48,335 bases of DNA, from IMG/VR virus record IMGVR_UViG_3300000292_000047; one strand, given 5' to 3'. A program made the position numbers and the translations under genes. Of the stretch, positions 1,009 through 46,411 are shown piece by piece. Origin of the DNA: a virus. Taxonomy: Duplodnaviria; Heunggongvirae; Uroviricota; Caudoviricetes. Every line of letters starts with the position of its first letter. The first letter of the stretch is position 1. The notes beneath the pieces were generated by a model. That model searched no databases. It was not told the origin of the DNA and was given only the letters and a program-made list of their open reading frames with translations.

Positions 1009-1084
1009 TGGTGGCCCCTACCGGATTTGAACCGATGACCGTGCGATTATGAGTCGCCTGCTCTAACCACTAAGCTAAGGGGCC
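1009..1084 (-). tRNA. tRNA with CAT anticodon (Met or Ile2), CCA encoded
   Basis: Minus-strand reading GGCCCCT..CTCATAA..GGTTCAAATCC..AGGGGCCACCA; 7-bp acceptor stem, T-arm ATCGG/CCGGT, anticodon loop CTCATAA. Confidence 0.8.
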
Positions 1085-11460: not shown

Positions 11461-11483
11461 CCAAACACATGGAGTCTCGACAA

Positions 11484-12137
11484 ATGACTATCTCTGTAGG
11501 TATTTTCAACGGAAAAGGCGGCGTAACCAAATCAACAATTGCCCGTGCTTTAGCAGTTGCTTATGCAAAGGCCGGCTGGAATGTATGCCTGATCGATATG
11601 GATGTGCTTAACGGAACGGTAACGCGTTGGGTACAACGCAGAATGGCCAACAATATCGAACCTGCAATCGCGGCGCAGCCGTGCGGCACGCCATCACAAG
11701 TCCAGAAAATCATCGAATCAGAAGTATACGACCTGGTTATCGTCGATGGCGGTGCCTACGCATCTGAATCAGTACCGAAGCTCTCTGAATTTCTGGATAT
11801 GGTTATTTTGCCAACCAGATTCTCTACCGATGACCTAGAAACCACCGTTAACACAGCTCACGGCATCGTTAAAAAGGGTGTGCCAATCAAGAAAATTTGC
11901 ATGGTGTTCTCAGGCGCGGCTGAAAACGAAGCCGACTACATTGAAGCCCAAGAGTACCTAGCTAATACGCCATACTTTGTTGTCGATAAGTACATTCCCC
12001 ACAAGCCAGCTCTGAGCAAAGCTCAGGATAAGGGCTTAAGCCTCATTGAATGCTCATACGTTGCGCCACGCAAAAAGGCAGACGACGTTATTCAGGGGAT
12101 TATCAACCAGCTTGAGGCTCTGACTACTGCCGCGTAA
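11484..12137 (+). CDS. parA: ParA/ParF-type partition ATPase (alternative ATG at 11469)
   Basis: Deviant Walker A GKGGVTKST; MinD/ParA fold; GGAG SD before ATG 11484. Confidence 0.8.
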   Translation: MTISVGIFNGKGGVTKSTIARALAVAYAKAGWNVCLIDMDVLNGTVTRWVQRRMANNIEPAIAAQPCGTPSQVQKIIESEVYDLVIVDGGAYASESVPKLSEFLDMVILPTRFSTDDLETTVNTAHGIVKKGVPIKKICMVFSGAAENEADYIEAQEYLANTPYFVVDKYIPHKPALSKAQDKGLSLIECSYVAPRKKADDVIQGIINQLEALTTAA

Positions 12138-12180: not shown

Positions 12181-12429
12181 ATGGCCGGACCATCAAAACC
12201 ACCAAAGAAGAACAGCAAAGGCGTACCGCCATCGATCGAACAACCGCAGGTTTTCGACCCGACTGAAACGCCAACCAGAACCAAATCAGGTGGGGCACAA
12301 ATGGCGTTTAACGTCGACCCTGAATTTAAACGCGAGTACAAAACGTTCGCCAGCTCAATGGATATGTCATTGAAAGAAGTGCTGACAAAATCTTTTGAGT
12401 TACTCAAGGCTCAATACAACCAGAAGTAA
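12181..12429 (+). CDS. ParG-like ribbon-helix-helix centromere-binding protein
   Basis: 82 aa immediately after ParA; basic unstructured N-terminus then predicted beta-strand/helix segment; AGAGGGG SD. Confidence 0.55.
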   Translation: MAGPSKPPKKNSKGVPPSIEQPQVFDPTETPTRTKSGGAQMAFNVDPEFKREYKTFASSMDMSLKEVLTKSFELLKAQYNQK

Positions 12430-12491
12430 GAGAAGGTGACGGCCTCCAGCGCCAACTGTTGGCCGTCGCGACACAACAAGGGGAATTTGTT

Positions 12492-12641
12492 ATGTCCGAG
12501 CAACAATATACACGGTTACTGAAAGCTCGTCTAACCGACCTCAAACGGCTGCAAGCTGGTCGCTTATTTGCCCTGCTATCCACCAGGCCAGAATGGGTAC
12601 GTGAAGCAGTTCTGAAAGGCTTAATGCGCTCCAGCGTTTAA
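12492..12641 (+). CDS. Small hypothetical protein
   Basis: 49 aa from ATG 12492 with AAGGGGAA SD. Confidence 0.3.
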   Translation: MSEQQYTRLLKARLTDLKRLQAGRLFALLSTRPEWVREAVLKGLMRSSV

Positions 12642-12650
12642 ATTCAACCA

Positions 12651-12674
12651 TAAAAAAGGCCCCCGAAGGGGCCT
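12651..12674. terminator. Hairpin terminator, usable on minus strand (bidirectional candidate)
   Basis: aggcccc-cgaa-ggggcct perfect stem; A-run on plus gives U-run on minus. Confidence 0.6.
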
Positions 12675-12679
12675 AATCG

Positions 12680-12802
12680 CTACTTGCTGCTAATGTTTAT
12701 CGTCACATTCAGAGCGTTATCAGTAATCTTCCAACCCTCCCCATGTGGCGTAAACAAAGCCCCAGTAACAACGATAAAAATACACATACAGTATTTTTTC
12801 AT
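12680..12802 (-). CDS. Small hydrophobic peptide (40 aa), candidate type I toxin-like or exported peptide
   Basis: MKKYCMCIFIVVTGALFTPHGEGWKITDNALNVTINISSK; ATG inside track ORF 12680-12862; terminator immediately downstream. Confidence 0.3.
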   Translation of the reverse strand: MKKYCMCIFIVVTGALFTPHGEGWKITDNALNVTINISSK

Positions 12803-13200
12803 TGTATGGCCCTTACAGGCCGTTTCACGGCATCCCCACCGACGAAAACAACGCGAGAGCAAGCACGGCTGCTTGTGCTTGCATGTACGGCAACGGAGAA
12901 TCCTCCCCTAAAGTCGGTGCCCGGGTGCGAATCGGCGGGAAGGTCCACAGGTATTTTACGATTATTTTAAGATTAGTAATAGGAAAGAAATTAAACGAAA
13001 AAACTCGTTTATTTTCACAAAATCAGTAACCTACCCACAATCTGTGAGTTTGCAGGCACAACAAGAATCACAATTTTTTGAAGCATAATAGTGGACTATT
13101 ATTACCTTTTGGGTAAAATTAACTTGCTGCTTGTGCTTGCGTGGTTGTTTATACAACGACGTTATGCTGAAAGGACCGCGAATCCGATCAGCACGAAAGA

Positions 13201-13227
13201 ACCGTCCTCAATAGGGCGGTTTTTTTG
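13201..13227 (+). terminator. Intrinsic terminator (plus)
   Basis: accgtcc-tcaata-gggcggt then T7. Confidence 0.6.
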
Positions 13228-13309
13228 TTTCTGCCTACCAATAAACCCACGCTATGTGGTTGTCTCTGTTAAAATCCCGCCGTATTGACATGAATGCGCC
13301 ATTGGTGGA

Positions 13310-13392
13310 CACTTTCCGAGCCGTAGCAAAATCTACGGTCGGGATTGGAACCCCGTAGACACAATGGCGCATACCGCGTTAGCGGTTTTTTT
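13310..13392 (+). ncRNA. Candidate small structured RNA ending at intrinsic terminator, upstream of antirepressor operon
   Basis: TTGACA at 13285-13290; hairpins ccgtag/ctacgg; terminator accgc-gtta-gcggt + T7 (13373-13392); no ORF. Confidence 0.3.
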
Positions 13393-13558
13393 ATGCGTAA
13401 AGCACTGCTACACCCAAATTATGGTGGGGCGTGCGGGGGAGTCGTAAGACTCGCCGGTTCGTCATTGTGTCCGGTAGTTCCAACCCTGCACGTCTCACCA
13501 CCCAATGATTGGAACCTGACGGTGGTGAGTATCCTTAACCTTTAAGGGAATCATCACA

Positions 13559-13750
13559 ATGACAAACCTACCCCATGACTATTACGTCAACCTCGTAAAG
13601 ATCCTTCTCAAGAAAGCCTCATACGCCGATAAATTCCGCCTGGCTGAAATCATCGAGCGCGAAGCTATGCGCATCGCCAGCAACGATAACGCTGTTTCTG
13701 ACGCAAAAATCTCCCTCGTAACCAAAGTTGTTATGGGAGGTGCAAAATGA
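13559..13750 (+). CDS. Small protein translationally coupled to antirepressor
   Basis: 63 aa; stop overlaps ant start (ATGA). Confidence 0.45.
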   Translation: MTNLPHDYYVNLVKILLKKASYADKFRLAEIIEREAMRIASNDNAVSDAKISLVTKVVMGGAK

Positions 13751-14898
13751 AAACGCTTCCGATCGTTAACACCCTACAGCCTATCCTGCATAATCAGATT
13801 CCAGTAATCACAACTGAGCTACTCGCCCGCCTTTATGGAACAGAAGCAATCCGTATACAGCAAAATCACCATGAAAATAAAACTCGGTTCATTGAGGGGA
13901 AGCACTTCTTTAAAGCTGTTGGTGATGAACTCAAAAATTTGCGACTAGTTTTAAACGAGTCACAAAATGAGGTGCAAATTTCCCCCAAAACTCGCTCTCT
14001 CATCCTCTGGACAGAACGCGGGGCTGCACGTCACGCCAAAATGCTTGAAACTAACCAAGCGTGGGATGTGTTCGAACGGCTGGAAGACTGCTATTTCAAC
14101 CAGAACGCGCAAACGGCCGCGACCGTTACCGTCTCGCCAAACAATCCTCGTGAGGTTGTCGATACGCTCAACGCCAAACCGATGTTTTACATTAAGGTGT
14201 GCAACAACGAGCCACTCACAACCTCAGCCGATGTTGCCCAGGCATTCAGCACCACAAACAATTCCATCGTTATGGCCATCGATGCGTTACGCATTCCTCG
14301 TACAGCTGCGGCACGTCATTTCTTTAAAGAGCAACGACCGCTGGAAGGAAGCGACCGCGAAATAACAATCTATCGCATGACAAAAGACGGATTTACCTTG
14401 CTCATGGAAAGTATCGACGGTCCAGGCGTGAAAGATATCAAGCTGGCCTACATTGAAGCCTTTAACGCTATCAGCAGCGTGTTAAAAACACAGTACGAGC
14501 GTGATCTGGCTAAACGACTGTACCAGGAAAAAACGATTATCCGCGCGGCAACAGAGCATAATCGGCTATTAACAGAACCGAAATACAGGAAGGAACTAAT
14601 CAAGGAGTTTGACAAGGCAACAGGGAAAACCAAAGCGGCGCTAAATCTGCCAGCAATGACTCAGGAAAATGTGATATCAGCCTTACTTCTTGATCTGCTC
14701 AGAAACGCCAGAGCACTTATCAGCTTTGACGAAAACCTGAATCCTCAGCTCAAGCTACTACCACCGACAGGCAAAGTAGTCGACCAGGCTGATCACAACA
14801 GCATACTCAGCGTACTGGATGCAAACCTGCCAGCCAGGACACTACAGGATCTGATAAAAACATGTGCTGATAAGCTGGCACAGAAGAGCAGACCATAA
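13747..14898 (+). CDS. Antirepressor-type regulatory protein (ORF6N-like N-terminus + Rha domain)
   Basis: 383 aa; ITIYRMTKDGFTLLMESIDGPGVKDIKLAYIEAFN matches Rha pattern; GGAGG SD. Confidence 0.7.
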   Translation: MKTLPIVNTLQPILHNQIPVITTELLARLYGTEAIRIQQNHHENKTRFIEGKHFFKAVGDELKNLRLVLNESQNEVQISPKTRSLILWTERGAARHAKMLETNQAWDVFERLEDCYFNQNAQTAATVTVSPNNPREVVDTLNAKPMFYIKVCNNEPLTTSADVAQAFSTTNNSIVMAIDALRIPRTAAARHFFKEQRPLEGSDREITIYRMTKDGFTLLMESIDGPGVKDIKLAYIEAFNAISSVLKTQYERDLAKRLYQEKTIIRAATEHNRLLTEPKYRKELIKEFDKATGKTKAALNLPAMTQENVISALLLDLLRNARALISFDENLNPQLKLLPPTGKVVDQADHNSILSVLDANLPARTLQDLIKTCADKLAQKSRP

Positions 14899-17154: not shown

Positions 17155-17454
17155 TCAGATGTTAAACGCTATTCGTTTTCCTGTGGGAAGCTCAACATCC
17201 AGGCTTAATTTGCCTCCCATAGCTTCAACGTAACGCTTTAATGTCGCCAGCTTTAAATCATTTCCGCGCTGCTCCAGCTTTGTTACTGCTGGCTGGCTTA
17301 TACCCATCGCCTCAGCAACCTGTTTTTGTGATAACTGGAGTTCTTCACGCATCATCTGCAAGCCGACCTCAAGAATCATCTCATCTGCCATTTCTTTAAT
17401 TCGCGCCTGGCTTTCAGGTGAACGGCTGGCAATCACCTCATCTAATGTTCTCAT
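17155..17454 (-). CDS. higA: HigA-like antitoxin (XRE HTH)
   Basis: 99 aa; LSQKQVAEAMGISQPAVTKLE HTH; directly downstream of toxin gene. Confidence 0.65.
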   Translation of the reverse strand: MRTLDEVIASRSPESQARIKEMADEMILEVGLQMMREELQLSQKQVAEAMGISQPAVTKLEQRGNDLKLATLKRYVEAMGGKLSLDVELPTGKRIAFNI

Positions 17455-17801
17455 TACTTGCTCTCCAGTGTGTTCAGATGTGCTGCAAACTCATCCTCAG
17501 CTATACGCACCAGTTTTTCATAAAACCGTTTATCGTTACTTTTGTCTCCTGCACAAAGAACGATGGCCCGGCGAATCGGATCGAACGCATAAAAGGCTCT
17601 TATCGGACGGCCAGAAAACTGAACGCGAAGCTCTTTCATATTTTTGTACCGAGAACCTTTTACGGTATCGGCATATGGCCTGGGTAACTCAGGTCCGTAA
17701 ACCTGTAGCTTTTTCAAATCAGCCAAAACCTTTTCCTGAAGAGCGTCTTCTTGCTCATTTAGCCAGTCGTCAAATCGCTGGCTAAAAAGTACCGTCCACA
17801 T
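17454..17801 (-). CDS. higB: HigB / Gp49-family (RelE/ParE superfamily) toxin
   Basis: Track start is TTG; ATG 17799-17801 with AGGA SD; ELRVQFSGRPIRAFYAF...LCAGDKSNDKRFYEKLVRIAEDE pattern. Confidence 0.65.
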   Translation of the reverse strand: MWTVLFSQRFDDWLNEQEDALQEKVLADLKKLQVYGPELPRPYADTVKGSRYKNMKELRVQFSGRPIRAFYAFDPIRRAIVLCAGDKSNDKRFYEKLVRIAEDEFAAHLNTLESK

Positions 17802-19263: not shown

Positions 19264-20112
19264 TTAATGTTGGAGTGATTTCCAGGTCTTTCTTAACCTG
19301 TTATAACGCTGCTCAACGAGGGATCGTAAATATGCAAGGTCAGCACCAGGATACATGCCATCAGCAAATTCCTGACTAACCTCTCTGGTGATTTGATGAC
19401 GAAGTTCGGCCTCTCCCTTTTCCCGAACAAGACGCGCAGCTCTCTCCGCTGCTTTCTGTTTTGCCTTTATCTCTCTGGCCGTCTTCCTCTGACGCCATAC
19501 ATTCTCCATCTGCTCCTGAATAACAATACGCTTATAATCAGCCTCCGTTATCGCTTTTTTAAGCCGTTCGCTATTCTTCGCATTGAAGTAATTAAGTTTC
19601 TGGCTAACCGCACGTCTCCATGCTTGTTCAGTAATACCAACGGTTTCCAGCAGTTGATCACGAATCTCTATTTTCGCTGGCCAATACTGTTTATTCACCC
19701 GATCCCAGCGACGTTCATAATCAATAAAACCTAACGCTTTCAGTTGCGACAACGCCCTTGTACAGCGCGTTATAGACTTGTTCCCAGCTTCGGATACGGT
19801 AGACAGGCCGCAAAAATCAGCCAACGCCTCAGCACTAGCCAGAACCCGCTTAGAAATGATGTTTACATGGTGCAAAATCGCAGCGATCACAGCATTAATC
19901 GCCCGACGACGATGCTCGTTTATCCGGCGCTTCCGCTCTGACGGTTGATTAACGTAGAACGCAACCTCACACGTAAGATCACGCCCATTAATGCGCTGTA
20001 AAGCATCAGATAACACCAGCGGCAGCTTGTGCGTATGGTGCTTTGGAGGCTGGAACTCCGGCGACAAATTACAAACGTAAGCTGAACGTAGAGACGGCAT
20101 TGGTCTATCCAT
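19264..20112 (-). CDS. repA: IncFII-type (RepFIIA-like) replication initiator RepA; in-frame upstream ATG at 20244 possible
   Basis: RRRAINAVI and GLSTVSEAGNKSITRCTRALSQLKALGFIDYE align by eye with R100 RepA1 (RRRAIDALL, GLATESAAGKLSITRATRALTFLSELGLITYQ); ATG 20110-20112. Confidence 0.7.
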   Translation of the reverse strand: MDRPMPSLRSAYVCNLSPEFQPPKHHTHKLPLVLSDALQRINGRDLTCEVAFYVNQPSERKRRINEHRRRAINAVIAAILHHVNIISKRVLASAEALADFCGLSTVSEAGNKSITRCTRALSQLKALGFIDYERRWDRVNKQYWPAKIEIRDQLLETVGITEQAWRRAVSQKLNYFNAKNSERLKKAITEADYKRIVIQEQMENVWRQRKTAREIKAKQKAAERAARLVREKGEAELRHQITREVSQEFADGMYPGADLAYLRSLVEQRYNRLRKTWKSLQH

Positions 20113-20156
20113 ATGTTCGCTCTTGCGTCCACGGAAAACCAACGTATAATGGGAGT

Positions 20157-20237
20157 TGTCGAGGCGCCCATGGATTGTTGTTGTTGGTTTTCCGTGGATG
20201 TCGCAAGAAGCCCGCAGATTTATCTGCGGGCTTTTTG
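20157..20237 (+). ncRNA. CopA-like antisense RNA countertranscript to repA leader
   Basis: TTGCGT-N16-TATAAT at 20123-20150; strong terminator gcccgcaga-ttta-tctgcgggc + T5 at 20210-20236. Confidence 0.55.
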
Positions 20238-20710
20238 TTTCCATATCTGGTCACTTTCCAACCAGACACCCACAATCATAACCACGTTACGTGGTTTTAA
20301 GAGAACTCTACCACAACACTTTCGGTCATGCACGAAGTCTCTCACTGATCGAACGATAATCCACCAGTAAAAGGATCTAAATTGGATCTCGTTTTGCGAG
20401 CATCATACTACTGGCCTAACTCCAGTCAATGATTCCCAGCCAGAAACCTGCGGTAAACTCATCGTTCAGCAATATGCTGTCCGGCTTCAAAGATAAGGTG
20501 ACATCATCCCTTAACAGCGCGGCCAGTTCAGTTAAAGGGCTGTTCTGATTTAATGCTGGCCACTCATACCTGGTAATAAGTGGTCAGTCTTAACACTCAC
20601 CATTTGATTGCACCCGTGTTGACGATTTGTTACTGGATATCAGACACGCTGGATAGCCAGTAGAAACATACCATTAAAATTATTACAATAATTGGTCACA
20701 TGATTATCTT

Positions 20711-21274
20711 ATGCTGAATAATAAAGATATGAATATTAATGAACTTAAAGACTGTATTCACTATGAAGTAATCGGTAGCGAGCGTCCTTTCTCCTGGCGA
20801 AAGGCAATTGTTCGCGCAATAAAACATAGAAGGGTTCGTTATTTATTTTGGTGGCGCATAGCCAAATACCTTTTTGATAAAGGCGGATACTGTCGGAAGA
20901 TTGCGGGAAAAATAGAACGTTTCATTCTTGATAAATATAATGTAACAGTCCCTTTAACTGTAAATATAGGGAAAGGCTTTGATATTTCTTATCTCAACAG
21001 TGTTGTTATCGGTCACAAAGTAACAATCGGTGAAAATTGTTCAATTAAGCCCGGAGTAACTATTGGACTTCGCGGGGAATTTAATGATATGGATATTGTT
21101 ATAGGGCATAATGTGACCATTGGTTGTAATGCCACCATTCTTGGTGGCAAAGTGCGTATAGGAAACAATGTCACAATAGGTGCTCATGCATTGGTATTGC
21201 ATGATATTCCTGATGATTCAACATTCATCACTAAATTTCAGTCTGAAGTTATCTGCTCGTCCTCCCGAACATAA
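20711..21274 (+). CDS. Hexapeptide-repeat (left-handed beta-helix) acetyltransferase, moron
   Basis: 187 aa; repeated [LIV]-G-x-x-x-x hexapeptides; AT-rich relative to neighbours; 3' end overlaps convergent Tfa gene. Confidence 0.7.
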
Positions 21275-44414: not shown

Positions 44415-45788
44415 CTACTTAATCAACGGCCGGAAAGCCGCCAGCACATCATCAGATCGTCCGATTGTTGAACCACCAGGCAACGGCAACTCAAACTCAA
44501 AACGAACAGCTTTCTCCAGACTCTCCCAGCGAAGAGAATCATCGTTAATAACGTGCAAATACCAGCTCTTACAGTTGAATATTGACCGCTTAATCCTGAA
44601 ACCATGTACACGACACAACTGCTTCACTTCATCATCAGAGTGAAACTTCTGGTAAAACCAGTGCCCCTTCCGGTACAACGCGGTAAAACCGTTATGATCA
44701 ATAAAATAAAGCCGGCTTTTGGAACTCGCCGCTTGTGTTTGCTTCAGGACTGTTTCCAGCTCTCCACGGCTACGACCAGAAAAGAATATTGACCCACCAG
44801 CTTTACACAGGCCTTTCAGAACCGTCAGAACAGACCATTCAGCCTCGACACTATCGACCGAGTTCAAAACGCTATCGCAAATCACGTAGTCGTAACGCCC
44901 TCGCGTTTTTAAGTCGTCCACCAGCGTATCAATCATCCGGTTTGTTGCGGTCCTATCCAGAGTGTTTCCAGCGCCCTTACGGCGGAAAAGCTCGAGATCA
45001 TGCAGGTTATATCCCTTTGCCCTGAGCATTCGCGCGTAGTCTCCCTGCCCCGAACCAAAATCAATTCCTCTTGGCGTCTTGGCAATGATCGGGAGGATCA
45101 ACGACTCATACAGGTTTGATTTCAGGCTGCCACCATTACGCAACCGCATAAGCTGCGCATACGTCTGGATGTATGTTGTTTTCTCCAGATGAGAATACTC
45201 AAATACACCATAAGTTTTATTCAGATAACTTTGGTATTTTTCCTTCTCAACATCAGGGATCACAAACACCGTTAGCGGTGTGCGCGTCATTTTCGCTGCT
45301 AATGCATACTGAGCACAGTGAATAACCTCACCAGACTGAGTAGCAACACAACCACCCCACGGACCATACTTGATAACCAGTTCCGCTATGTTCTTTCGAA
45401 CATATGCCATTTTCGCGCGCATATTGCCTGAGATCTGGCTTGCCGATACCTGAACAAAACCATGCTTATCTTCCAGACCGGACACCCTGCAACGCTCATC
45501 TCCGCTATCAAAATCCGTTCCGTTATGCAGTTGGTTAAACCGTACTTCGTCGTATACCGTCGTTTCACAGGGCAACACATACACCGCAGCACGCGTTATT
45601 CCCAACTTACGTAGCGCCTTCGTCCTTTGGTGTCCCGCCACCAGCAAATCGCCGCGCACTATCAATGGCTTCACAAGCCCCAGCTCCCTGACGCTTTCCG
45701 CCAGCCTCGCAAGATCATCCTCACCGATAAAACGCGGGTTATATTCCGCGCCGCGTAGGTGCGTTATGTCGTAATTCAGGTGAAGCAT
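44415..45788 (-). CDS. ParB-like domain fused to class I SAM-dependent methyltransferase
   Basis: N-terminal ParB-like region (LVAGHQRTKAL); C-terminal GIDFGSGQGDYA motif I; ATG 45786-45788 with GGAGG SD, TGATG coupling to upstream gene. Confidence 0.7.
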   Translation of the reverse strand: MLHLNYDITHLRGAEYNPRFIGEDDLARLAESVRELGLVKPLIVRGDLLVAGHQRTKALRKLGITRAAVYVLPCETTVYDEVRFNQLHNGTDFDSGDERCRVSGLEDKHGFVQVSASQISGNMRAKMAYVRKNIAELVIKYGPWGGCVATQSGEVIHCAQYALAAKMTRTPLTVFVIPDVEKEKYQSYLNKTYGVFEYSHLEKTTYIQTYAQLMRLRNGGSLKSNLYESLILPIIAKTPRGIDFGSGQGDYARMLRAKGYNLHDLELFRRKGAGNTLDRTATNRMIDTLVDDLKTRGRYDYVICDSVLNSVDSVEAEWSVLTVLKGLCKAGGSIFFSGRSRGELETVLKQTQAASSKSRLYFIDHNGFTALYRKGHWFYQKFHSDDEVKQLCRVHGFRIKRSIFNCKSWYLHVINDDSLRWESLEKAVRFEFELPLPGGSTIGRSDDVLAAFRPLIK

Positions 45789-46411
45789 CAGCACACCTCC
45801 CCAGCCAGCAATGCGGATACAAATCCGATATAGCTGCCATTATCATCAACATAACGAGACACCGCGCAGTCAAAACGATCCGCTTCCTCATCCGTTGCCG
45901 GGATTTTATGACCTCCAAATGACAGGTACTGAACTTTTACGCCTGATTTGGCCTCATCCTTCTCAAATGGGATATCCATACCCTCTGTGTCATCGTAGAC
46001 CGCCGCACTCAATAAGTTATCCAGTTCGCGCTGAGTAAAACCAATTGAGTCCAGAGCAAAATCATCGGCCGCAAGATCTGCAAGCTCCGCGCTTAACAAC
46101 TCTTCATCCCAACCAGCATTCAGCGGAATACGGTTGTCGGCCAGACGATATGCCTTCTTCTGATTCTCCGTTAGCCCAGCCAGAACAATGCAGGGAACAT
46201 CATCCATCCCCAACTGAGTGGCCGCAGCAATTCGACCATGACCAGCAATTACAACGTTGTTCTCGTCTATCAGGATCGGATTAGTCCATCCGTACTCCTG
46301 TATGCTGGCAACAATCTGATCTACCTGCTCCACGGAGTGTGTGCGAGCGTTCTTTTCATAACCAATCAACACAGAAAGTGGTAAAGAAACCACATTAAGA
46401 TGTTTTGTCAT
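45788..46411 (-). CDS. ParB-like nuclease domain protein
   Basis: 207 aa; VIAGHGRIAAA; shares C-terminal region with 42531-43121. Confidence 0.7.
   Translation of the reverse strand: MTKHLNVVSLPLSVLIGYEKNARTHSVEQVDQIVASIQEYGWTNPILIDENNVVIAGHGRIAAATQLGMDDVPCIVLAGLTENQKKAYRLADNRIPLNAGWDEELLSAELADLAADDFALDSIGFTQRELDNLLSAAVYDDTEGMDIPFEKDEAKSGVKVQYLSFGGHKIPATDEEADRFDCAVSRYVDDNGSYIGFVSALLAGEVC

Follow-up and report, generated by a model that had tools for sequence, protein, structure and literature searches.

We analyzed a viral DNA of 48,335 nucleotides (nt), IMG/VR record IMGVR_UViG_3300000292_000047 (hereafter the window, meaning this whole stretch), and describe region 12652-13227, in which a minus-strand mRNA for a 40-amino-acid (aa) peptide and a plus-strand small RNA (sRNA) are arranged divergently. 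This region very probably represents a type I toxin–antitoxin (TA) locus of the timPR family (ryfA/TimR) carried by a phage-plasmid. An earlier reading of the letters alone (the sequence-only reading) had proposed a type I pair in the style of zorO-orzO or tisB-istR at this place, and the locus proved homologous to timP/TimR, which has exactly such an architecture. No family was named then, this homology being beyond the reach of a sequence-only reading. The locus is a divergent, unannotated copy of the known enterobacterial timP/TimR, that is, a known kind of system in a new place. Its units are the following.

12680-12802, minus strand: TimP-like open reading frame (ORF) of 40 aa and a stop; MKK, then a hydrophobic stretch resembling a signal sequence or a membrane anchor.
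12652-12948, minus strand: predicted timP (ryfA-like) toxin mRNA of 297 nt, comprising a 146-nt structured 5′ untranslated leader, the 40-codon ORF and a terminator.
12652-12675, minus strand: intrinsic terminator of the timP mRNA, a hairpin (12674->12657) and a U run, found by a terminator scan and aligned to the terminal hairpin of the Rfam model.
12953-12958, minus strand: putative -10-like hexamer TAAAAT, read from the sequence, 5 nt upstream of where the alignment of the timP RNA begins.
12949-13091, no strand: spacer between the divergent units, free of constraint except at the promoters; identity is 41-49% between variants with flanks of 95-100% identity.
13092-13119, plus strand: promoter-like site of the sRNA, sigma-70-like TGGACT-16-TAAAAT, with 9/12 matches in a promoter scan.
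13126-13227, plus strand: TimR-like antitoxin sRNA of ~102 nt, with a free 5′ seed (13126-13143), two stem-loops, of which the second has the loop CCGCGAA, and a terminator (13201-13227).

Three findings place the locus in timPR: a match to Rfam RF00126 (141.8 bits), a match of the peptide to NCBIfam's TimP model (E 7e-5) and an sRNA body resembling the timR copies of Escherichia coli K-12. In a scan of the whole window with Rfam, ryfA (RF00126) was matched by 12948->12652 with an E-value of 1.8e-36, against a gathering score of 80 bits; the match covered model positions 1-296 of 296 and was not truncated. The timP-like RNA was 67% identical to K-12 ryfA over 202 nt, and its minimum free energy (MFE) fold had a z-score of -4.0. 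In Salmonella, ryfA is the mRNA of TimP, a 38-aa toxic inner-membrane protein, and TimR is the divergently encoded sRNA that represses it (PMC7667032); the E. coli K-12 annotation lists timR (b4811), ryfA (b4440) and timP (b4812, 41 aa). Both RNAs and the peptide of the window are homologous to these, with the ORF and the pairing site in the same positions. The pairing site, a pseudoknot and the stem-loops of the leader are conserved and covary, and the seeds are unlike those of the chromosomal K-12 pair. From this homology, we infer that the two RNAs are made, that the peptide acts as a toxin and that it is kept in check by the sRNA.

The sequence-only reading had pointed to a 40-codon minus-strand ORF with a hydrophobic N-terminal half and a hairpin terminator directly behind it. 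All three are present: the ORF runs from 12802 to 12680 (40 codons and a stop, MKKYCMCIFIVVTGALFTPHGEGWKITDNALNVTINISSK), the mean Kyte-Doolittle hydropathy is 2.36 for residues 4-17 and -0.53 for the remainder, and the terminator-like hairpin is followed by a T run. K-12 TimP has nearly the same mean hydropathy over residues 4-17 (2.34). The NCBIfam model NF040796 (toxic_TimP) was aligned to residues 1-40 of 40 of the window peptide (E 7.1e-5, 23 bits), and no Pfam model was found for this peptide. By eye, the pattern MK..C.CI..IV.GAL.T...DN.L.V.N..SSK is common to the window peptide and K-12 TimP. The ATG lies at RNA nt 147 in the window, in K-12, in a second lineage (L128) and in a plasmid variant termed group A; in another variant, group B, it reads 146 only since the extract begins one base later. 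An intact ORF is found in all variants as well as in the second lineage. The timP terminator hairpin itself (12651-12675) is G+C-rich and stands between an A run and a T run; a convergent 60-aa ORF (12459-12641) stops 10 nt before it, and the hairpin may terminate transcription in both directions.

The plus-strand RNA ending at 13201-13227, also foreseen from the letters, folded with a strong terminal hairpin and a U run. This terminator was missed by a simple terminator scanner, yet it folds as expected. The fold energy of the sRNA was -42.8 kcal/mol (z = -5.7 versus shuffled controls), with the 5′ end essentially unpaired. From the promoter-like site, the RNA start was predicted at ~13126, exactly where the complementarity to the timP leader begins, and the sRNA of the second lineage (L128/L130) has the same promoter layout (TAGACA-17 nt-TAAAAA) upstream. 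The sRNA has 102 nt as compared with 100 nt for K-12 timR, and the two have the same four-part order and alignable sequence, including a conserved segment GAAAGG(A)CCGCGAA. It was also 77% identical over 66 nt to a second TimR-like copy in K-12 (E 4e-6, small-database blastn). Judged by these alignments, the plus-strand RNA is homologous to TimR. A divergent sRNA with a promoter-like site, an 18-bp duplex from its nt 1 and a terminator corresponds to the criterion of the published work (PMC7667032). No TimR family was matched by the sRNA in Rfam, the best match being RNAI with 26 bits versus a threshold of 47; this and further weak matches of the region to Rfam models, among them Phe leader and GcvB, were far below threshold and regarded as spurious.

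The second K-12 copy is unannotated and lies directly upstream of ryfA (L001, 13690-13787, minus strand). Its body is conserved, and its 5′ end pairs with ryfA over only 11 bp, including 3 G-U pairs. Beside the annotated timR stands a short fragment resembling the ryfA 5′ end (L001, ~13533-13560, plus strand), and the K-12 locus looks like a partly decayed tandem duplication.

A 15-nt sequence, GCTGCTTGTGCTTGC, had been reported twice on the plus strand and was found there exactly, at 12868-12882 and 13126-13140. The first copy had been assigned to the leader of the peptide mRNA, and it lies within mRNA nt 64-81 of the 146-nt leader. The perfect 15-nt complementarity proposed between sRNA and leader holds; it extends to an ungapped duplex of 18 bp with 1 G-U pair between sRNA nt 1-18 (13126-13143) and mRNA nt 64-81 (12885->12868). 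This length, and the assignment of the target to the loop and 5′ arm of stem-loop 2 (SL2) in a structured leader of 146 nt, are the only refinements to the earlier proposal. A run of 18 bp was reached in 1 of 2000 shuffles of the sRNA, and matches to the 15-mer at ≤2 mismatches were expected 0.10 times by chance in the window, with none of 100 shuffles reaching 3. K-12 TimR pairs at the same position (mRNA nt 64-82), and the 5′ end of Salmonella TimR forms an 18-nt pairing in the timP leader at >60 nt upstream of the ribosome-binding site (RBS) (PMC7667032). In the window, likewise, the TimR site lies >60 nt upstream of the RBS, in SL2, at a conserved distance to the ORF.

Pairing was assessed by a search for ungapped runs and by duplex energies of seed versus leader; a whole-RNA duplex prediction returned long, meaningless duplexes and was replaced. 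The 5′ end of the sRNA varies jointly with the SL2 site across three sequence variants and the second lineage, as listed here.

Window type: sRNA seed GCTGCTTG (short form GCUGCUUG...); target, written on the sRNA strand, GCTGCTTG (short form GCUGCUUG...).
Group A (e.g., the ATCC 25922 plasmid and Yersinia phages): seed GCTGTTTG (short form GCUGUUUG...); target GCTGTTTG (short form GCUGUUUG...).
Group B (e.g., JE86-ST05_p3): seed GCCGCTTG (short form GCCGCUUG...); target ACCGCTTG (short form ACCGCUUG...).
Second lineage L128/L130: seed CAGGUUAGUGCUUGCAU; its own SL2 mRNA AUGCAAGCACUAACCUG, exactly complementary.

The duplex reaches 21 bp in groups A and B. Cognate duplexes of seed and leader were predicted at -34 to -42 kcal/mol and crosses with the K-12 or L128 types at -18 to -25 kcal/mol. 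For the window and K-12, the cross pairs gave -21 and -25 kcal/mol versus -36 and -40 kcal/mol for the cognate pairs, and on these modeled energies cross-repression between the two would not be expected. The three plasmid variants probably cross-react with one another, as predicted from duplexes of -32 to -35 kcal/mol. A third near-copy of the 15-mer (44728-44742, plus strand, GCCGCTTGTGTTTGC, 2 mismatches) lies within a ParB-like gene (44415-45794, minus strand), and the minus-strand mRNA there could pair with the TimR seed at 14/15 positions. Since this near-copy is invariant in groups A and B, without any counterpart to the changes of the seed, we took it as probably due to chance.

The leader that would receive the sRNA carries the following elements, all on the minus strand.

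12868-12885: predicted TimR-binding site, mRNA nt 64-81, CAUGCAAGCACAAGCAGC, covering the 5′ arm and loop of SL2 (nt 67-90).
12913-12919: pseudoknot site 1, mRNA nt 30-36, CACCGAC, in upper SL1.
12837-12843: pseudoknot site 3, mRNA nt 106-112, GUCGGUG, in the SL3 loop.
12887-12891: site 2, mRNA nt 58-62, GCCGU, which can pair with site 4.
12819-12823: site 4, mRNA nt 126-130, ACGGC, in the 5′ flank of SL4.
12806-12823: SL4, mRNA nt 126-143; the Shine-Dalgarno region AAGGG (4-10 nt upstream of the ATG) is sequestered in it.

Sites 1 and 3 are perfectly complementary over 7 bp, and K-12 has CGCUGGC and GCCAGUG in the same alignment columns (the K-12 pairing was identified from the sequence). The whole-RNA MFE fold likewise pairs nt 30-36 with nt 106-112. 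We aligned seven leaders, three from plasmid variants and one each from the window, a viral contig, the second lineage and K-12. In this alignment, the pseudoknot helix was 100% paired in 7/7 sequences, with 2 pairs changed on both sides. The complementarity of sites 2 and 4, read from the sequence, is 5 bp, and GCCGUA and CGG are invariant. SL4 aligned to the Rfam structure, and its pair 133-144 is changed on both sides, from C-G to U-A, in L128 and K-12. Over the entire structure, 87.5% of paired cells were able to pair, as compared with 34-43% when the partners were slid by 1-3 columns; these counts come from a small sample, with the structure taken from the Rfam alignment and the same sequences, and they are supportive and no independent proof. 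The published structural-switch model is supported by these natural compensatory variants. A promoter-like site on the minus strand inside the leader (12828->12801), just before the ATG, was taken as chance.

In Salmonella, translation of timP needs a 7-bp pseudoknot between SL1 and SL3, and this pseudoknot is disrupted when TimR binds to SL2 in the active conformer (PMC11228461). A second contact, between sites 2 and 4, opens SL4 and frees the Shine-Dalgarno sequence (PMC13000454). By homology, the following course may be proposed for the window. Transcription of the minus strand from 12948 to 12652 would give the 297-nt mRNA, whose leader would fold into four stem-loops and which would encode a 40-aa membrane-targeted toxin. 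Translation would require both the CACCGAC/GUCGGUG pseudoknot and the GCCGU/ACGGC contact, the latter opening SL4 and exposing the Shine-Dalgarno sequence. The TimR-like sRNA, encoded divergently 177 bp away, would form the 18-bp duplex with SL2 through its free 5′ end; this pairing would disrupt the pseudoknotted active conformation and block translation of the toxin. If TimR were unstable and the timP mRNA more stable, cells losing the element would be penalized, as in hok/sok. Such a hok/sok-like maintenance role would be the most natural reading of the locus.

Several points weigh against the timPR interpretation. The window peptide scored 23 bits, below the curated cut-off of 45 for NF040796, a model on which K-12 TimP scored 86.8; it is only ~36% identical to K-12 TimP. 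Therefore, its toxic activity is not to be assumed. By its score, it is a divergent relative outside the curated TimP subfamily, and the sub-cut-off score means that annotation pipelines miss it. The timP promoter is weak by consensus (-35 ATTACT, with a 16-nt spacer) and fell below the threshold of the promoter scan, and the contact of sites 2 and 4 has 5 bp here versus 6 bp in Salmonella. Deletion of timR in Salmonella does not stop growth at native expression (PMC7667032), so a killing or addiction phenotype is uncertain. Moreover, a type II RelE/ParE-type module on the same element could cover maintenance. Finally, both repeat copies stand on one DNA strand, so that covariation by itself would fit two copies of a protein-binding site as well as RNA pairing, and the argument for RNA pairing rests on the homology to timPR.

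The low peptide score bears on whether a toxin is made at all. The 297-nt RNA might act mainly as a regulator, an sRNA of the RyfA type with the TimR-like RNA as its antagonist, and no functional toxin would then be made from the ORF. RyfA has been handled as an sRNA affecting stress resistance and virulence in uropathogenic E. coli, avian pathogenic E. coli (APEC) and Shigella (PMC8205139, PMC13188913), and according to the APEC paper a toxic peptide from E. coli ryfA was not yet established. We consider this explanation unlikely, since the ORF is intact in all variants and the second lineage with its start at nt 147, is 98% conserved beside a spacer of 41-49% identity and keeps its hydrophobic segment, and since the elements of translation control (SL4, the pseudoknot, sites 2 and 4) are kept through compensatory changes. 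The regulatory and toxin roles are not mutually exclusive.

The same-strand orientation of the repeats admits another explanation, in which the two 15-nt copies act as DNA, either as sites for a partition or repressor protein or as recombination scars, and the RNA complementarity is incidental. They are direct repeats near parA and a small gene of ribbon-helix-helix size, and they bound a hypervariable block (12849-13125). However, the copies sit where the chromosomal homologue has its proven RNA partners, at the sRNA 5′ end and in SL2; the sequences of the second lineage and of K-12 are entirely different there and yet mutually complementary; and only two copies exist, without an array, the near-copy at 44728 not covarying with them. 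This makes a role at the DNA level highly improbable, and we retain timPR as the preferred reading.

The variants share ~98% identity over ~86% of the window. Between them, identity by segment was 98% for the ORF, 93-99% for the sRNA, 83-84% for the leader, where the changes are compensatory, and 41-49% for the spacer. The divergent block (~12849-13125) is sharply bounded by the two pairing sites. A 39-aa homologue with 68% identity to the window peptide led to the second lineage, which is represented by a Logan contig and a viral contig of 44.8 kb and has a ryfA score of 166 bits. The timP-like RNA was found in 58 PLSDB plasmids, all of 46-52 kb and non-mobilizable, from Escherichia and, in one case, Klebsiella, in 3 Yersinia pestis phages and in 72 of 5426 complete E. 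coli genomes. In the ATCC 25922 plasmid (NZ_CP009073.1), the timP-like RNA maps to 20577-20873 on the plus strand and the predicted sRNA to ~20300-20402 on the minus strand. Chromosomal timP loci were not reached by blastn against these 5426 genomes. Only the covariance model, the peptide profile and small-database blastn show the homology. A loose pattern scan for the TimR core among viral contigs gave ≥120 loci, that is, at least 120, nearly all due to chance, with L026, L060 and L081 the only real ones. A stricter 34-nt TimR pattern was found in 7 viral contigs, and nothing was found with it in species-representative genomes.

This distribution also bears on whether the locus is a non-functional, decaying remnant of chromosomal origin. 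It has never been annotated, and it is divergent from chromosomal timP, with no blastn match to the chromosomal loci of the 5426 genomes. Against decay, 58 plasmids, 3 phages and several viral contigs have kept the locus, its ORF, terminators, promoter and pairing all being intact, and the compensatory changes imply continuing selection on pairing and structure. We give hardly any credence to the remnant explanation.

In the timPR reading, the known relatives of the locus are the chromosomal timP/TimR pairs of Salmonella Typhimurium and E. coli. Shared with these are a homologous mRNA with an ORF of ~40 aa from nt 147 and a signal-like hydrophobic N-terminus; a divergent sRNA of ~100 nt with an 18-19-nt pairing at leader nt 64-82 and a homologous body and terminator; and the SL1-SL3 pseudoknot, the contact of site 2 with site 4 and the SL4 that sequesters the Shine-Dalgarno sequence. 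The locus differs in its place, beside parA on a phage-plasmid rather than in the sseA-sseB interval. Compared with K-12, seed and target are unrelated, and the promoters are 177 bp apart here versus ~400 bp there.

Plasmid-borne hok/sok (parB of plasmid R1), srnB and pndA likewise combine a small membrane toxin with an antisense RNA and an mRNA structure that prevents premature translation. In hok/sok, the penalty for plasmid loss is established, whereas at the timPR locus described here it is only proposed. The two are unrelated in sequence; Sok overlaps the hok/mok leader in cis, whereas the genes of the window do not overlap and their pairing spans 18 nt. Moreover, hok needs 3′ processing, coupling to mok and RNase III, while timP is activated by a switch of structure alone (PMC11228461, PMC13000454). 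The hok/sok families gave no match in Rfam or NCBIfam, and the 5′ ends of the transcription units are 177 bp apart without overlap. Gene arrangement and logic, as the sequence-only reading had recognized, are also those of E. coli tisB/istR-1, zorO/orzO, shoB/ohsC and dinQ/agrB, with divergent adjacent genes and a short perfect complementarity of sRNA and toxin leader far upstream of the RBS; these differ in being unrelated in sequence, chromosomal and dependent on mRNA processing and ribosome standby sites. LexA controls tisB and dinQ; reading the spacer of the window by eye revealed nothing resembling a LexA box, and the candidate CTGTGAGTTTGCAGGC does not fit CTGT-N8-ACAG.

The block containing both pairing sites (12849-13125) is 40-60% identical between elements that are otherwise 98% identical. 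We tentatively propose, at rather less than even confidence, that a divergent type I system of short complementarity, of a kind so far described only on chromosomes, was captured by phage-plasmids and may serve as an addiction or defense module with its own specificity, insulated from the timPR of the host, block 12849-13125 then being an exchangeable specificity cassette. Many type I families are known only from chromosomes according to a survey (PMC5367252). We found no report in the literature of timPR or ryfA on plasmids or phages, which does not prove that none exists.

timPR has so far been studied only as a chromosomal locus, and a copy next to the partition genes of a low-copy phage-plasmid offers a setting in which a role in maintenance or exclusion can be tested. 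Among the variants, compensatory mutants of both the pseudoknot and the sRNA-target pair are already at hand. In addition, timP, TimR or ryfA was annotated in none of the carrier records examined, including the widely used control strain E. coli ATCC 25922 and the three Yersinia pestis phages; the features listed under the matches are neighboring genes overlapping the edge of the query. The peptide stays below the curated cut-off, and the carrier records have no ryfA/TimR RNA feature. The value of the finding lies mainly in this annotation gap and in a natural system for testing the role of timPR.

The window is a 48-kb phage-plasmid of the myovirus type and encodes a tail sheath, tape measure, portal, terminase, major head protein and ParA. 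Its relatives are annotated with RepA and with RelE/ParE and a partner; the same genes lie at 19264-20244 and 17155-17801 of the window. The pair at 17155-17801, a RelE/ParE-family toxin and a helix-turn-helix partner, is 99% identical to that of the ATCC 25922 plasmid. Around timPR, the following features were found.

11469-12137: parA, first in the local gene order.
12181-12429: gene of 82 aa, after parA and followed by the 60-aa ORF, timP (minus strand) and TimR (plus strand).
13320-13392, plus strand: isrK-like RNA (Rfam, 67.7 bits), downstream of the TimR terminator.
13417-13505, plus strand: C4 antisense RNA (Rfam, 77.8 bits).
13747-14898, plus strand: ORF6N/Ant-type gene of 383 aa, preceded by a 63-aa ORF (from 13559).

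The isrK-like RNA, C4, the 63-aa ORF and the ORF6N/Ant gene form an immunity module of the P1 immI type. The C4 region of group B relatives is 48-78% identical, with flanks of 92-100%, which suggests that the immunity specificities differ. In group A and the Yersinia phages, an extra block of ~795 bp with a minus-strand helix-turn-helix gene stands between the TimR terminator and isrK (window 13228-13268), and it is absent in the window and in group B. Coordinates in relatives are as follows.

L002: 3562-4134.
L003: 3834-4373.
L005: 2059-2631.
L007: 2302-2874.

In L128 (373-1572, 2755-3977), the isrK/C4 module and a Rha-family gene separate timPR from parA, with an IS91-family transposase on the far side of TimR; the position of the TA pair therefore shifts within the region of maintenance and immunity genes. 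Elsewhere in the window, a tRNA gene (1012-1084, minus strand, 65.8 bits) was found, and relatives annotate a tRNA-Ile near their lysis genes.

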